Program-made: the position numbers and the translations under genes
Assembly (NCBI GenBank): GCA_965649205.1
Contig: CBFGJV010000020.1
Location: forward strand, 1 to 40,446
Length of the DNA: 40,446 bases
Direction of reading: 5' to 3'
Origin: a candidate division WOR-3 bacterium
Lineage (GTDB): Bacteria > Hydrothermota > Tepidihabitantia > Tepidihabitantales > Tepidihabitantaceae
Part shown: positions 1 through 6,054 of the stretch, piece after piece
Position numbering within the stretch: position 1 is the stretch's first letter
Layout of the letters: the number at the start of each line of letters is the position of its first letter
Notes under the pieces: model-generated
Told to the model about the DNA's origin: nothing
The model's input: the letters and a program-made list of their open reading frames with translations, nothing else
Databases searched by the model: none

Positions 1-20
1 CGTACTCACTACTCACTGCA

Positions 21-141
21 AGGAAGTGGCCGGAGAGGGAGTAGCCAGAAAGGGAGTAGCCGGAAAGCCGGAGAGGGAGTGGCCGGAGAGGGAGTAGCCG
101 GAAAGGGAGTAGGTAGAAAGGGGATGACCGGAAAGCCGGAG
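21..141 (+). repeat. Purine-rich ~15-bp tandem repeats (AGGGAGTRGCCRGAR) upstream of cas1
   Basis: Units at 21, 36, 51, 74, 89, 104 and 119 plus two 8-bp partial units; same unit family as 2644-2733; pyrimidine-rich, partly complementary tract at ~168-205. Confidence 0.9.
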
Positions 142-211
142 GGCTGACCGACGAGCCAGCCGTTGAACTACTCTCTACCATCTGCTCCCTACTACCTGTC
201 TCCCCAGCAAT

Positions 212-1201
212 ATGGCTACACTATACGTGACTGAACAGGGCGCAAAGCTCACCCGCGAATCGCGGCGGCTTCTGGTCGTGCGCGATGATGCGGTTCTGCT
301 TGACATACCAACCATCAAGGTTGAACGGGTGCTCATCTTCGGCTACTGTCAGATTACCACGCAGGCACTCGAACTACTGCTGTCCGAAGGTATCCCGACT
401 GCATTTCTTTCAATGGAAGGCCGACTCAAAGGTACGCTGGAACCCATCCGCTCCAAAAATATACCCCTGCGCGTAGCTCAGTACGAACTCTGCCGCAAGC
501 CGGACTTCTGTCTGGCTGTTGCCCGGCGCATCGTTGCGGGCAAAGTCAGGAATCAGCTCCGGCTGATACAACGCTTTGCCCACAATCGGCCCGAATGCGA
601 CTTCACCACCGCCCAACGCGACCTGAACCAGTTACTTGCCCAAGTTGACCACAAGACTGCGGCGGGCGGGCTTCTGGGGCTAGAAGGCCGGGCGACAGCG
701 GTCTACTTCGACGCCTTTCGTCGGATGTTTCGTCGGATGTCCTTTGAGCGTCGGGAGCGCCGGCCGCCGCCCGACCCGGTGAACTCGCTCCTGAGTCTCG
801 GCTATACGATGCTGGCGAATGAGTTTCTCTCGGCTGTTTCGGCAGTCGGACTTGACCCCTATCTCGGCTTCTTTCATACCACAAGCTACGGTCGGCCATC
901 GTTGGCGCTCGACCTGTGCGAGGAGCTCCGGCACCCGTTGGTGGACATGCTTACTCTCGACCTTGTAAACCGGGGAATACTGAAAGAACAGGACTTTACG
1001 CAGGACGAATGTGGCTTCATTCTTGTGCCGGAAGCCCGAAAACGTTACTTCAGCAAGTACGAACGACGGATGACAATACAATTCAAACATCCTCGCACAG
1101 CGCAGAACACCAACGTCCGGTCTATTATTCGCGAACAAGCCCTGAAAATATGTCACACCATTCAGGAAGGAGTGCCGTATGAACCGTTCTTCATCGGATA
1201 G
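212..1201 (+). CDS. cas1: CRISPR-associated endonuclease Cas1
   Basis: N-terminal TLYVTEQGAKL, GLEGRA..YF, RRPPPDPVNSLLSLGY, DPYLGFFH and SLALDLCEELR motifs; adjacent to cas2 and the array. Confidence 0.97.
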   Translation: MATLYVTEQGAKLTRESRRLLVVRDDAVLLDIPTIKVERVLIFGYCQITTQALELLLSEGIPTAFLSMEGRLKGTLEPIRSKNIPLRVAQYELCRKPDFCLAVARRIVAGKVRNQLRLIQRFAHNRPECDFTTAQRDLNQLLAQVDHKTAAGGLLGLEGRATAVYFDAFRRMFRRMSFERRERRPPPDPVNSLLSLGYTMLANEFLSAVSAVGLDPYLGFFHTTSYGRPSLALDLCEELRHPLVDMLTLDLVNRGILKEQDFTQDECGFILVPEARKRYFSKYERRMTIQFKHPRTAQNTNVRSIIREQALKICHTIQEGVPYEPFFIG

Positions 1202-1478
1202 CTGGTTTGTAGTCATAAGCTACGACGTCAAGAGCGACAGACGCCGCAACCGGGTGTGCAAAGCTCTAAAGGACTACGGAGAACGGGTCCAGTACAGCGT
1301 ATTCGAATGCCTGATAGACGAGCCGACCGCCGTGCGCCTAGAAGCCCGTCTTGCCTCGCTAATCAAAGACGACGAAGACACAATTAGAATGTACCGTCTA
1401 TGCGCGAAGTGCAGCGGTAGAGCGAAAGCGATAGGCACTGGCACGCTAACGGAAGAGGAAGATGTGTATGTCGTATGA
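1179..1478 (+). CDS. cas2: CRISPR-associated endonuclease Cas2
   Basis: VVISYDV..DRRRNRV.K.LK.YG.RVQYSVFEC motif; overlaps the cas1 3' end; start codon uncertain. Confidence 0.96.
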   Translation: MNRSSSDSWFVVISYDVKSDRRRNRVCKALKDYGERVQYSVFECLIDEPTAVRLEARLASLIKDDEDTIRMYRLCAKCSGRAKAIGTGTLTEEEDVYVV

Positions 1479-1570
1479 ATCTGGGTTGACTCAGAAGTGC
1501 CTCGTGACTTGGGTCTCGACCCATTTGACACAGCTAACACCTGAAGCCATAATGGGCTACACGGACGAGG
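1479..1570 (+). promoter_or_regulatory. CRISPR leader with sigma70-like promoter TTGACA(1525-1530)-N17-CATAAT(1548-1553)
   Basis: Lies between the cas2 stop and the first repeat; near-consensus hexamers; the degenerate repeat is at the opposite end of the array. Confidence 0.7.
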
Positions 1571-2641
1571 GTCTGAAACCTGTCCCTGATGAAAAAGGGA
1601 TTGCGACCAGCTTCTTCGCCTGCACCCAGCCGAAAGCCAGTCGATTACGTCTGAAACCTGTCCCTGATGAAAAAGGGATTGCGACGGCAAATAGCCGAAC
1701 CCACCTCCGAATTGTTGTTTTTTGGTCTGAAACCTGTCCCTGATGAAAAAGGGATTGCGACTTCTCTATTCCAGACGAAAATTACAGGTTGGATATTTCT
1801 CGTAGTCTGAAACCTGTCCCTGATGAAAAAGGGATTGCGACGCATCTATAGCGGCCCGGAATCTGTCTCCCCCCCAATACTCTCCGTCTGAAACCTGTCC
1901 CTGATGAAAAAGGGATTGCGACGCGATAGCCGGGCCGAGCTCGGCGAACTCCCCTCCCTCCGTTCGTCTGAAACCTGTCCCTGATGAAAAAGGGATTGCG
2001 ACGCCGCCCCAATCAGCACTTTCTCCGCGTCGGATGCTTGCGCTAGCGTCTGAAACCTGTCCCTGATGAAAAAGGGATTGCGACGAATTTCTCTTCCCCC
2101 CAGTACTCTCCGAGCTCGTACCCGGCGTCTGAAACCTGTCCCTGATGAAAAAGGGATTGCGACGAACCAGATGGGCATACCATTATCATCAGCAAGCAAC
2201 TCTACGTCTGAAACCTGTCCCTGATGAAAAAGGGATTGCGACACGAATAGTGCGCCAGAGCTATTGCTATGAATTTTTCTGGGTCTGAAACCTGTCCCTG
2301 ATGAAAAAGGGATTGCGACGATCCTTGACTCTCTCAAAGCCGCAGACGCTCGCAAACTCATCGGTCTGAAACCTGTCCCTGATGAAAAAGGGATTGCGAC
2401 TGCCGATTATCGTCCAGAAAGCCGACGACTGGCATCAGCTGGATCAGTCTGAAACCTGTCCCTGATGAAAAAGGGATTGCGACGGTATTGATTATTTCAT
2501 CGTGCGAAGCAACGATATCCACTCCGTCTGAAACCTGTCCCTGATGAAAAAGGGATTGCGACATTACTATAAATTTTTCTGGGGACAAAAATTGCCCCCA
2601 GAGGGTCTGAAACCTGTCCCTGATGAAAAAGGGATTGCTTG
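1571..2641 (+). CRISPR. CRISPR array: 14 repeats of 37 bp (GTCTGAAACCTGTCCCTGATGAAAAAGGGATTGCGAC) and 13 spacers of 39-46 bp; probably type III-associated
   Basis: Repeats start at 1571, 1649, 1725, 1805, 1886, 1966, 2048, 2127, 2206, 2283, 2364, 2447, 2526 and 2605; the last diverges in its final 3 nt. Internal TCCCT/AGGGA hairpin. Long variable spacers and the ATTGCGAC 3' end suggest type III (inference; no effector genes in the window). Confidence 0.98.
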
Positions 2642-2643
2642 CT

Positions 2644-2733
2644 AGGGAGTAGCCAGAGAGGGAGTAGCCAGAGAGGGAGTGGACAGAAAGGAAGTGGACA
2701 GAAAGAGAGTGGACAGAAAGGGAGTAGACAAGA
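2644..2733 (+). repeat. Six tandem 15-bp purine-rich repeats (core heptamer approx. RGAGTRG) abutting the terminal CRISPR repeat
   Basis: AGGGAGTAGCCAGAG x2, AGGGAGTGGACAGAA, AGGAAGTGGACAGAA, AGAGAGTGGACAGAA, AGGGAGTAGACAAGA. Confidence 0.92.
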
Positions 2734-2761
2734 AAGGAGCAGGGAGTGGTAGTGACAGGCG

Positions 2762-2790
2762 TTGACGTTTGTTTAGAACCCGAGTATGCT
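2762..2790 (+). promoter_or_regulatory. Putative sigma70 promoter TTGACG-N17-TATGCT for the four-helix-bundle gene
   Basis: Hexamer match; GAGGT SD-like sequence before ATG 2810. Confidence 0.55.
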
Positions 2791-2809
2791 GCAGCAGTGA
2801 GGTTCAAAT

Positions 2810-3169
2810 ATGAACGATAAGCCTCACCGCCGGCTGCTGGTGTGGCAGGCTGCAGTGGAGCTCGTGACCAAGGTTTACAAGCACACTCGCACTTTCCCAC
2901 AGGCTGAGCGGTACGCACTTGTGGCACAGATGCGGCGCGCCGCCGCATCAATCCCGAGTAACATTGCCGAGGGTGCAGCCCGAAAAGGCCGAAAAGAGTA
3001 TGTCCAGTTTCTTCATACCGCACGCGGTTCACTGAGCGAGCTTGACACCCAGCTGGAAATAGCCTTCCGTCTCGGCTACCTAAATGAGAGGTGCCGGGCA
3101 GAGCTTCAGTCCCAGTTGGACTGCGTTGGTCGAATGCTGAGTGGACTGATCAGTTCCCTCAATCACTAG
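2810..3169 (+). CDS. Four-helix-bundle protein (23S rRNA IVP / TIGR02436 / Avd-like family)
   Basis: L.VWQ.A.EL...VY..T..FP..E.Y.L..QMRRAA.SIPSNIAEG..R....EY.QFL..ARGSL.EL.TQL.IA..LGY signature. Confidence 0.93.
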   Translation: MNDKPHRRLLVWQAAVELVTKVYKHTRTFPQAERYALVAQMRRAAASIPSNIAEGAARKGRKEYVQFLHTARGSLSELDTQLEIAFRLGYLNERCRAELQSQLDCVGRMLSGLISSLNH

Positions 3170-3170
3170 A

Positions 3171-3212
3171 CTACTCTCTACTCCCCACTCCCTACTCTCC
3201 ACTCCCTACTCC
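3171..3212 (+). repeat. Six tandem heptamers CYACTCY, reverse-complementary to the cores of the 2644-2733 repeats
   Basis: CTACTCT CTACTCC CCACTCC CTACTCT CCACTCC CTACTCC immediately after the stop codon at 3169. Confidence 0.9.
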
Positions 3213-3240
3213 CTAATCCGAGGTGCGGTTGAAGAAGTGG

Positions 3241-4756
3241 TTAGCGGAAAATCAGTATTCCGCCGTCTTCGAGGAAGGCGAGTTCCTCCAGCTCAAAGTG
3301 CTGGCCCAGTTCTGCCACACTGTAAAGGTAGGGACGATGGAGGTACACAAACCACACCAGATAGTCGCCCGGTTTGACTTCTGCCTGCCAGAGGGGCTTG
3401 TCTTTTGCCGGGCTCATACGGCAGGGACGACCGGTGACCGAGTACACCAGAGCGGGGTCGTTGCTGTAAACTATGCCGTTGAGGGGGTTGAGTTTGAGCC
3501 ATTGTACCGTGTTGTAGTTCCGCACAATGTCGCCGTCGTAAACTCCAGCGCCGAATTGATGCCATCTTACGACGCTGAGTGCGGCTTTGCGTGCCGGATA
3601 TACTAGCCACAAAAGAAGAAAAAAGCTTATGAGCGCCGTGCCCAGCCGGGGTTTGTGCATCCGGCGACCCAAACTTTCACCCAGAGGAGCAAAAATACCA
3701 AGTGCGGGCGCCAGGGTGAGAGGCACGACCGGAGCGAGCATCCGGTCAAAGGAGCTTACGCCGACCCGAATAGAGAGAAGGCAGAGAGCGAGAACATAAA
3801 CACATGTAACGATGTAACCTGTAACCTGAAACAAGGGGAGCGGAGGCGAGTTCTGAGGTTGCTGCGGCTGTTGTGAGGCCAGGCACAGGTTTTCCCAGCG
3901 CTGGAGAAGAAGGAGCGCCAGCGCCAAGCCGAGAGCCAGAAGACCGACAAGAAGTACCCACCGGCTGGCAGGAAGGAATGAGCGGGGAAAAAACCAGACA
4001 AGTATGGTTTCCGCGGCAGTCTGCAGAGCGGCGAGGAAGCTGAGGTAAGGAGTGCTGTGCCGGCCCAGAGCGTTGACCCCCTGCAGATGTCGGTACGCAA
4101 TCCAGAAGAGAAGAGGCAAAGCCGAGGCAGTGGCCAGAAGCCCAGCGTAGAGAAGACGTCGCCAGAATCGTTGCTGGCTGAGCATAAGGAGTGCAACCAC
4201 AGCTCCGCCGACTATGAAGACGCCAGCGTACCGTTGCAGGACGCCGGCTGCGCCGCAAAGGCAGGCTAGGATAAGCCAGCGCGGGCGCACCGTACGCAGC
4301 CAGCGAACCAGGCTGGCAACCAGGCCGAGCACAAGCAGGGTGAAGACCGGTTCGCTCCAAGCGGTTGCCGAAGTTTTGAGCAGAGGCAGAGAGGTTAGTA
4401 CGGCAAGCGAGCCGATGACTGCCAGGGGCCGGAATCGGGTTTCTGCGGCCAGAAGCAGGCCGAAGAGGAAGACGGTGGCGCCAAAGGCAAAGGCATTGAG
4501 GAATCTGGCGGTCTGGGCCGGGTCCAGACCCATGGTTCCGGGCAGAGCCAAAAAGAGCGGGAAGAGAGGCGCATAGCCGCTGTAGGGGGGCATCGTCGAA
4601 TCCCCGCATGCCTTTGCCCGCGATCAGGTTACGGGCTGCGGCCAGATAGTGGGCTGAGTCGTGGGTGAGGCCGGGACCGTAAGGCCCGGTAGCCCAAAGA
4701 ATAACGATAATCGCCAGGATGCCAGCCGCAAGAATTGCCCAGTACTCAGGCCTCAC
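3241..4756 (-). pseudogene. GT-C fold (ArnT/PMT-like) integral membrane glycosyltransferase, frameshifted at a G6 tract (4585-4590)
   Basis: The N-terminus MRPEYWAIL...GPGLTHDSAHYLAAARNL..GKG.RGFDDAP (ORF from 4756) joins YSGYAPLFPLFLA...WSEPVF (ORF 3241-4593) if one base is removed; many TM segments. Confidence 0.75.
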
Positions 4757-4857
4757 GGCTCAGGATAGAGAGTAGAGGAAAGCTGTCAAGGTCAGTTTGA
4801 CCCGCAGGGCTGAATGAGTAAAATAACCCTTTAGCCGTCAGGCGGAAAGGAATCCGA

Positions 4858-6054
4858 ATGCATACTCAGGAACATATCAATTTGGCCGAAAGATATAGCG
4901 CCCACAATTACAAGCCTTTGCCTGTAGTGCTGACCAGAGGCGAGGGCGTGTGGGTGGAGGATGTGGAGGGAAGACGTTATCTGGATATGCTTTCCTCCTA
5001 TTCTGCCCTGAATCAGGGACACCGCCACCCTAAGATTATCGCCGCCCTGAAGGAGCAGGCGGACCGTCTGTGTCTTACCTCGCGGGCGTTTTACCATGAT
5101 GTTTTTGGGCCGTTCTGCGAGCTGGTGACCCGGGTGTGCGGATACGACCAGATATTGCCGATGAATTCGGGCGCAGAAGCGGTGGAGACTGCCATCAAAG
5201 CCGTGCGCCGCTGGGGGTATTTGCAGAAGGGAGTGGAGAAGGATCGGGCCGAGATTATCGTGTGCGAGGGAAATTTTCATGGCCGCACCACCACGGTGGT
5301 GAGTTTTTCCACCGAGAATCTGTACCGCGACGGGTTCGGGCCCTTTACTCCCGGGTTCGTCATCGTCCCCTATAATGATACCCGAGCGCTGGAGAAGGCA
5401 ATTACGGCAAATACGGTGGCGTTTCTGGTGGAGCCGATTCAGGGTGAAGCCGGGGTGCATGTGCCGGCGGCCGGTTATCTGGCTGAGGCGTATCGTGTCT
5501 GCCGCGAGCACAATGTGCTGTTTGTGGCCGACGAGATTCAGACCGGTCTGGGCAGAACCGGCAGGTTGTTCTGTTGCGAGTACGACGGAGTGAAGCCGGA
5601 CATACTTATTGTGGGCAAGGCTCTGGGCGGCGGCGTGATTCCGGTTTCGGGCATTCTGGCGTCCAGAAAGATGATGAGCGTTTTTGTGCCCGGCAATCAC
5701 GGTTCCACCTTCGGCGGAAATCCCCTGGCCTGCGCGGTAGCCAAGAGGGCGCTGGAGGTGATTCTGGAGGAAGGAATGGTGGAAAACGCCTTCCGGATGG
5801 GCGAGTATCTGCGGGCCAGGCTAAAGGAGATACGTTCTCCGCATGTGCGGGAAATCAGAGGCCGGGGATTGCTCGTGGGCGTGGAAATCAAGCCGGAGTC
5901 GGGCAAGGCGCGCAAGTTCTGCGAAAGGCTGATGGAACTGGGGGTGCTGGCCAAGGAGACGCACGAGACCGTAATCAGGCTGGCTCCGCCGCTAGTTATC
6001 ACGCAGAAGGAGCTGGACTGGGCTCTGGAACGTATCGCTGCGGTATTGCAGTAG
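4858..6054 (+). CDS. rocD: Ornithine--oxo-acid aminotransferase
   Basis: AHNYKPLPVVL.RGEG.WV.DVEG..Y.DMLSSYSALNQGH.HP, MNSGAEAVETAIK, EPIQGEAG, DEIQTGLGRTG, GKALGGG. Confidence 0.95.
   Translation: MHTQEHINLAERYSAHNYKPLPVVLTRGEGVWVEDVEGRRYLDMLSSYSALNQGHRHPKIIAALKEQADRLCLTSRAFYHDVFGPFCELVTRVCGYDQILPMNSGAEAVETAIKAVRRWGYLQKGVEKDRAEIIVCEGNFHGRTTTVVSFSTENLYRDGFGPFTPGFVIVPYNDTRALEKAITANTVAFLVEPIQGEAGVHVPAAGYLAEAYRVCREHNVLFVADEIQTGLGRTGRLFCCEYDGVKPDILIVGKALGGGVIPVSGILASRKMMSVFVPGNHGSTFGGNPLACAVAKRALEVILEEGMVENAFRMGEYLRARLKEIRSPHVREIRGRGLLVGVEIKPESGKARKFCERLMELGVLAKETHETVIRLAPPLVITQKELDWALERIAAVLQ

Follow-up and report, generated by a model that had tools for sequence, protein, structure and literature searches.

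The locus

The window (the whole stretch of DNA that was analysed, 40,446 nucleotides) carries near its start a CRISPR adaptation module, a CRISPR array and, directly behind the array, a small gene between two runs of complementary repeats (the arms). Gene and arms together are called the cassette below. The features are:

20..203, forward strand: gene-less copy of the element before cas1, made of 15-mers (one extra octamer) and a worn complementary heptamer arm
212..1478, forward strand: cas1 (212-1201) and cas2 (1179-1478), between the gene-less and the gene-bearing copy of the element (profile search)
1571..2641, forward strand: CRISPR array, 14 repeats of 37 nt, its leader adjoining cas2
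2605..2641, forward strand: terminal CRISPR repeat, hairpin intact, 5 of the 8 nt of the 3' tag kept (read from the sequence)
2644..2749, forward strand: 5' arm, six 15-mers and then a short tail with one extra core; each 15-mer consists of one heptamer (GGGAGTA type) and one octamer (GCCAGAGA/GACAGAAA type)
2762..2790, forward strand: sigma-70-like promoter TTGACG-17-TATGCT, located in the loop, after the 5' arm and before the ORF (consensus match only)
2799..2803, forward strand: Shine-Dalgarno-like GAGGT (sequence match)
2810..3169, forward strand: ORF of 119 aa, four-helix-bundle protein of PF05635/TIGR02436 (profile search and fold match)
3171..3219, forward strand: 3' arm, six exact CYACTCY heptamers and one worn unit

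The neighbours of the cassette are cas1, cas2, a membrane protein without family match and an aminotransferase; no transposase is present among them, and nothing within the window matched Rfam. We infer that the array is of type III-A from the cas6-cas10-RAMP-csm6 genes on contig C31, and that C31 belongs with the window from an overlap, the end of C31 being a slightly different copy of the window start. The terminal repeat deviates from the consensus in its last 3 nt and would presumably be cut by Cas6 between 2633 and 2634, as in type III processing generally.

On either side of the cas1-cas2-array block lies a copy of the 15-mer arm in direct orientation (20-203 and 2644-3219), and recombination between the copies would delete or circularise the adaptation module together with the array. 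Further downstream, at 3813-3832, three TGTAACC-type heptamers lie inside a convergent membrane-protein gene, TGTAACC being the unit of the cassette on C29; the homologues are too distant to call this stretch an insertion.

The protein

The product of the ORF scored 129.9 bits against PF05635 (cut-off 33.8) and 124.4 bits against TIGR02436 (cut-off 24). Its predicted model (pLDDT 79.5) gave the pentameric Xcc0516 as best fold match (2GSC; E 9e-8, TM 0.77), to which it is 52–53% identical (sequence match E 5.5e-33). The family assignment made in the first-pass annotation is thus confirmed. Avd of diversity-generating retroelements (DGR), to which the first-pass annotation had related the family, has the same fold (Foldseek probability 1.0 at 15–17% identity, Avd being more distant than 2GSC), and the profile scores stay below the cut-offs of both Avd models (43.2 versus 80 for NF033474 and 33.2 versus 40 for PF22296). 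The protein contains 18 K+R versus 11 D+E, and no recognisable catalytic motif was found in it. Avd, itself a basic pentamer, binds a stem-loop by means of bases flipped out between its protomers (10.1101/2023.10.23.563531), and by analogy we infer that the cassette protein is probably a basic pentamer like Xcc0516 and Avd that reads repeat arrays. In a comparison with the three closest homologues, second codon positions were 71–81% identical and third positions 34–37%, which indicates purifying selection on the ORF.

Repeat arms and their predicted folding

The 5' repeat run (2644-2733) consists of six 15-nt units (TRF: 2644-2737, period 15, 6.2 copies, 88% matches) and starts 2 nt past the end of the terminal CRISPR repeat, in agreement with the first-pass description of six 15-bp units at the last repeat. 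The 3' arm is the reverse complement of the heptamer part of the 5' arm, and its six contiguous CYACTCY heptamers (3171-3212) follow directly 3' of the stop codon (3167-3169). The number of heptamers had been given as exactly six; the six are present, but so are a seventh, worn heptamer at 3213-3219 and a seventh core at 2743-2749 on the 5' side. A six-to-six rule does not hold, since the count depends on where one stops, and gene-less copies elsewhere in this genome have other numbers (8 cores and ~6 heptamers on C15, ~7 cores and 4–5 heptamers on C41). Counting both strands, 1124 heptamer cores are present in 4.3 Mb; six cores in tandem are expected by chance at ~1e-22 per site in a crude independent model, and a chance origin of the repeat runs is excluded.

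The octamer alone forms pure arrays at C2:78375 and C21:6494 of this genome, and it is doubled once in the gene-less copy at the window start, which results in a 23-nt step. The 15-mer is thus a heptamer plus an independent octamer, and the supposed bulges are units of a second repeat family that have no partner in the 3' arm.

Pairing of the arms had been proposed to give a long stem with regular 8-nt bulges. In the 6x6 register 39 of the 42 positions are able to pair, with the A/G variants mismatched across the register, and the duplex reaches −37.3 kcal/mol, 17 kcal/mol short of the −54.8 kcal/mol of the most stable fold of both arms. Both energy and register led us to reject the regular 6x6 bulged stem. 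When the whole 2644-3213 RNA was folded, the 3' arm was paired by cores 1–3 only; in the predicted read-through RNA these outer three cores have a pairing probability of 0.75–0.96 with the 3' arm, in a stem that is interrupted every few pairs. The arm duplex was equalled by 49 of 300 dinucleotide shuffles, because the purine/pyrimidine composition supplies most of the pairing, and the whole-region folding z was −1.5. A fixed mismatch position per unit was looked for over 77 loci and none was found.

A class of PF05635 genes with locus-matched arms

Homologues were collected at 189 loci, 187 of them with a match, and 161–164 were usable after dropping duplicates, short flanks and odd lengths. 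Tandem arrays were present on both flanks at 109 of 161 loci (86 with period 7, 22 with period 8 and 1 with period 9; the threshold was set without shuffle control). In the 86 period-7 loci the two arms of one locus agreed at 5.72 of 7 bases, compared to 3.70 between loci. A 6-mer occurring at least three times in each arm was found in 35 of 164 true pairs, compared to 14 of 1640 cross pairs; in direct orientation the count was 11 of 164. The cassette belongs to a widespread class of PF05635 genes with locus-matched inverted arms, and the first-pass view of a repeat-plus-protein unit, for which covariation of the flanks had been proposed as a test, is borne out by the match within loci. Local alignment placed 58 of 161 arm pairs above the 99th percentile of cross pairs; the window's arm pair scores 42, the octamer inserts keeping it below the cut of 45.9.

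The commonest form of the unit across arms is G-T-N4-A. The more alike two proteins are, the more alike are their units, from 2.96 up to 6.0 of 7 bases (Spearman 0.19, the pairs not being independent), and residue–base associations are seen that are uncorrected for kinship, for example His versus Tyr close to the N-terminus with A at one unit position; the window protein fits these partly. Each of the two other PF05635 genes above cut-off in this genome comes with inverted heptamers of its own. At G000:C15:29000-29800 (G000 being this genome) a longer gene, PF05635-like but scoring below cut-off, has 9-nt repeats within and around its coding sequence.

RNA or DNA

In the first-pass annotation the unit was thought to be either mobile or excised at the RNA level. 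In the second case a read-through transcript would fold arm against arm, and the gene would be released by a double-strand RNase, as with the 23S rRNA intervening sequence (IVS) of Coxiella, which is excised by RNase III (PMC4990558) and has the same protein family within complementary borders. The pairing predicted for the outer three cores agrees with such a role. RNase III, however, was not found in this genome (97.95% complete; two models) or in 18 members of its family, including one single-contig and one 100%-complete genome; the search did detect it in 2 of 31 genomes, which both belong to a sister family (short match, 157–175 aa frame), and in 8 of 14 controls. The promoter-like site in the loop (1 found versus 0.3 expected) and the broken stem also argue against excision, as does the base pairing. 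The non-Watson-Crick positions of 58 well-aligned arm pairs comprised 151 G·U, 204 A·C and 464 other, repeat alignments being ambiguous, whereas 44 tRNA acceptor stems gave 12 G·U, 0 A·C and 1 other, and 55 terminator-like hairpins 21 G·U, 14 A·C and 30 other. Having no G·U excess, the gene-flanking arms look unselected for a sense-strand RNA helix. Gene-less hairpins at CRISPR trailers (10, delimited by hand) had 27 G·U, 14 A·C and 42 other; these lean to G·U, which fits an RNA stem. Excision of the RNase III type, as in rRNA intervening sequences, is unlikely at this locus, and we give the RNA-level reading as a whole, including release by some other nuclease, a small probability.

Position at CRISPR trailers

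The repeat family of the array is present in 14 of 272 genomes of the phylum. We examined 24 array ends, 20 of which had enough downstream sequence, and scored an end as positive when a periodic arm was present within 130 nt. Arms were found at 10 of the 20 trailer ends (in 7 of the 14 genomes; 9 of 19 ends without this window). By comparison, they were present at 0 of 22 leaders and in 1 of 29 spacer blocks, and the post-stop intergenic sites gave 15 of 494 and 5 of 57; as genomes and arrays are related, the counts overstate independence. By eye, a few further trailer ends bear worn arms. Docking as pure coincidence was dropped as a reading, and a non-random link between cassette and CRISPR trailer is supported. 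The arm units vary from locus to locus among the docked elements, which points to several independent arrivals at trailer ends.

A gene directly after the repeat was seen at 3 of the 20 ends, namely in this window, at G029:C4 and at G182:C1, the contig end truncating the last of these. Matches were obtained for 20 of 301 genomes in a second phylum, to which G272 belongs; of the 19 stretches taken from it, 6 ran into contig ends, leaving 13 arrays. A gene or gene part touches a repeat in 3 of these 13, and the periodicity score was passed at 1 of the 13 ends. At L278 a PF05635 gene lies ~550 nt from the array on the opposite strand; it was left out of the docked genes. From the side of the gene, a true array lay near 2 of 186 distinct homologue loci, four further flags being arm arrays or other repeats. 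This low number argues against the dedicated role in read-through pre-crRNA that the first-pass annotation had considered, as does the promoter-like site in the loop, from which an mRNA without the 5' arm would be made. Arm- or gene-positive genomes mostly hold PF05635 genes, and the clean-trailer genomes G039, G219 and G012 gave none; exceptions are G223 (hairpins by eye, no gene match) and G026 (PF05635 matches, clean trailer).

Behind the element the repeat hairpin recurs in G029 (two loci), G019, G031, G223, G182 and G324, where the elements lie inside arrays. The recurring hairpin comprises ~18–25 nt of the 3' part of the repeat and is usually 5'-truncated or worn. The repeat remnant behind the window's own 3' arm is not significant, with 15% of random windows scoring equally well.

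The elements of these relatives occupy spacer slots, this genome encodes an RT-Cas1 fusion, and Avd, a distant relative of the protein, is an RT cofactor (10.1101/2023.10.23.563531), as might be expected of an oversized spacer that Cas1-Cas2 or RT-Cas1 had captured and that was gradually displaced to the trailer. The elements measure ~80–570 bp, however, far above the spacer length of the array; the repeat that follows them is truncated or worn rather than a full duplicate, the window cassette (~570 bp) has no repeat behind it, and most cassettes are located in ordinary operons. RT was present in 3 of 10 other docking-positive genomes versus 2 of 5 comparison genomes, so that RT presence does not track docking and RT dependence was rejected. 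Spacer capture is quite improbable. The first-pass statement that no RT is present to explain the unit is correct for the window, but the genome does encode one: the RT-Cas1, on another contig, is its sole RVT_1 match.

Several arrangements at other arrays were noted. Mini-arrays with one or two repeats followed by heptamer hairpins in place of spacers occur at G029:C15 and C7, G220:C18, G182:C411 and G180:C21. An insert of ~300 nt with a small ORF lies between two CRISPR repeats at G223:C2 (L251). A C-rich, seemingly periodic tract is found a few hundred bases past the trailer at G019:C9, G026:C28, G029, G012:C34 and G004:C263. A second array of this genome (G000:C22:1-3042, L263) has an unrelated repeat, a tag-less terminal repeat and a lone GTGACAG-type arm, and downstream of this trailer arm lie the RT-Cas1 fusion and then cas2; the two remaining arrays of the genome have no heptamer arm.

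Signs of mobility and gene-less copies

The number of PF05635 matches per genome ranged from 0 to 31 (31 genomes). The closest homologue, 65% identical and with a related unit, sits behind a methyladenine glycosylase gene. In G029 the loci on C4 and C7 have near-identical flanks and form a filled/empty pair, the difference of ~410 bp containing a promoter-like site and the ORF. Empty sites, for which the first-pass annotation had asked, thus exist in this relative, but an empty allele of the window's exact site was not found among related genomes; the same-genus G001 has a near-identical cas1 and gene-less element on a contig that ends before the array. Of the two alternatives named at the outset, the mobile unit is favoured by copy number, by the homologue at an unrelated locus and by the filled/empty pair, and excision of the RNase III type is not.

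Dispersed gene-less copies were confirmed in this genome, and the 15-mer element occupies non-CRISPR intergenic sites as well. Among 5 genomes searched, 15-mer arrays were found in G001 only; viral contigs contained 0. Near-identical copies before cas1 have 6 (window), 3 (C31) and 6 (G001) cores. The assembly also holds near-identical, distinct stretches that differ in repeat number (window 1-400 and the end of C31; C15:5800-6500 and C41:1-600). These amount to two cas1 starts and two Cys/Met-enzyme-bioY junctions, and may be strain variants or duplications. At G001:C90:9080-10075 (L010/L243) the gene-less element and cas1 start are nearly identical to those of the window but stand beside another upstream gene, which suggests that the adaptation module was exchanged recently. 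In housekeeping operons, single heptamer arms placed immediately ahead of start codons (G000:C15:11422-16662 and C2:71318) resemble the TAACTGA arrays described in PMC4679880.

Gene-less arrays of the same unit stand between genes and just before start codons, and a regulatory role has been proposed for the TAACTGA arrays (PMC4679880). Both would suit a non-mobile regulator, transcriptional or post-transcriptional, with the arms as autoregulatory sites and the gene-less arrays as a regulon (cas1, metabolic genes). The genes next to the arrays are functionally unrelated, though, near-identical copies differ in array count (3 versus 6 cores), and the number and location of cassettes vary widely; we consider a regulator of this kind the least probable of the explanations weighed here.

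A domesticated CRISPR accessory deserves somewhat more weight, and is still unlikely. The trailer hairpin, with or without the protein, would then terminate or cap the pre-crRNA or block an extraneous crRNA from the terminal repeat. This would account for strong enrichment at trailers with none at leaders and for the G·U lean of the gene-less trailer hairpins; furthermore, terminal repeats of Cas12a arrays are selected against extraneous crRNAs (PMC6610086), and a cluster with a 23S rRNA IVP gene and DUF2325 is listed as CRISPR-adaptation-linked (PMC10910872). On the other hand, half of the trailer ends are negative, and tag-less terminal repeats without any arm exist (G039 twice, G026, G219). 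The trailer proteins do not form a single lineage (those of the window and G029 are 32–34% identical), the closest homologues of the window protein are not at CRISPR arrays, and the same 15-mer element is found at intergenic sites away from CRISPR. Overall, the cassette is likely a mobile passenger that has settled where crRNA cutting would leave an insertion harmless, and not a CRISPR component.

Proposed mechanism

The reading that we prefer, with a probability slightly above one half (about 0.55), is that the cassette is mobile, that its protein recognises its own arrays and that host enzymes carry out the chemistry. The PF05635 protein would bind its own repeat units, probably in the form of DNA sites. 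Since the protein has no recognisable catalytic motif, strand transfer would be carried out by host recombination or repair. The repeat hairpin may be duplicated at insertion or through later repeat-to-repeat recombination, so that crRNA processing survives and Cas6 would free the insert from internal array positions. Slippage would let the copy number of the arms drift, loss of the gene between arm units would leave gene-less hairpins, and transcription of the window gene would start at its own promoter and not depend on the pre-crRNA.

The Cas6 step follows general knowledge of type III processing and the presence of cas6-cas10 genes on C31. The cassette likely persists behind the array because of the Cas6 cut expected in the array RNA shortly before it. 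The trailer would be a favoured home because insertion behind the last Cas6 hairpin would cost no crRNA, and because the trailer end of arrays is seldom deleted (PMC8047081).

A bolder version, which we put forward only tentatively and think rather unlikely in its full extent, treats PF05635 genes with inverted heptamer arms as a transposase-free mobile class and as the source of both heptamer repeats and ORF-bearing rRNA intervening sequences. Such elements would actively target RNA-processing hairpins such as CRISPR repeats and duplicate the Cas6 hairpin at insertion, so that Cas6 snips the insert from the pre-crRNA; they would spread without RNase III, and the sequence of a modular pentamer would set which heptamer is read.

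For the common PF05635 family structures have been solved but no function has been assigned, and heptamer tandem repeats have long been noted in bacterial genomes without a mechanism; the cassette connects the two. Repeated lodging of unrelated cassettes behind Cas6-type hairpins would let selfish DNA inhabit CRISPR arrays harmlessly, and trailer-lodged cassettes can mislead CRISPR-association searches and spacer callers. Spread in a lineage without detected RNase III sets the class apart from the rRNA-IVS model.

Comparison with known systems

REP/REPIN elements and their RAYT genes have one gene between inverted repeats, together with dispersed gene-less hairpins in intergenic DNA. The cassette differs in that it has no HUH transposase and in that its arms are tandem arrays with a locus-specific unit. 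Of the features of insertion sequences it has the dispersed gene-less copies, but no transposase among its neighbours; as to a target-site duplication, the recurring 3' part of the repeat (~18–25 nt) is seen behind elements in relatives and not behind the window copy. Orphan bacterial heptamer arrays are known from cyanobacteria as STRR. The TAACTGA arrays are orphan intergenic tandem heptamers as well, sporadic and cross-phylum in distribution (PMC4679880), and their reverse complement phases to G-T-N4-A. The cassette arrays differ from them in being inverted pairs around a PF05635 gene; four-helix-bundle or IVS proteins are not mentioned in that paper.

With DGR Avd (4DWL, 8UB-series) the protein shares its fold, and Avd can serve as a model for the reading of periodic sites; PF05635 has been called Avd-like (PMC10053308). 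The cassette protein differs by its score below the Avd cut-off (43 versus 80 bits) and by having no neighbouring RT, and no long repeat pair of the TR/VR kind was found in window 1-5000 besides the CRISPR and the arms. The cluster '23S rRNA IVP + DUF2325 + RT sometimes' of PMC10910872 resembles the cassette in that a PF05635 gene is statistically linked with CRISPR loci. It is a candidate gene association, and the accessible part of the paper has nothing on repeat arms, trailer position or gene-less copies; in PMC5524665 a PF05635 gene is merely tabulated. No description of heptamer-armed PF05635 cassettes or of trailer lodging was found in the literature searched, which consisted mostly of non-subscription papers, bioRxiv supplements aside.

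Closest are the 23S rRNA intervening sequences with an ORF (Coxiella S23p, Leptospira; PMC4990558). They have the same protein family and complementary borders around the ORF, are sporadic and horizontally acquired, and lie in a transcript from which processing separates the insert. The cassette, in contrast, is not located in rRNA, its arms are tandem 7/15-nt arrays, it has a promoter-like site of its own, and its ORF is intact and apparently under purifying selection rather than decaying. Its borders are complementary, and the pairing predicted for them does not exceed that of shuffles; the class has no G·U bias. Place and the absence of detected RNase III in its family set the cassette outside the rRNA intervening sequences proper; in its manner of working it is like an ORF-bearing intervening sequence that has shifted from rRNA to operons and CRISPR arrays.
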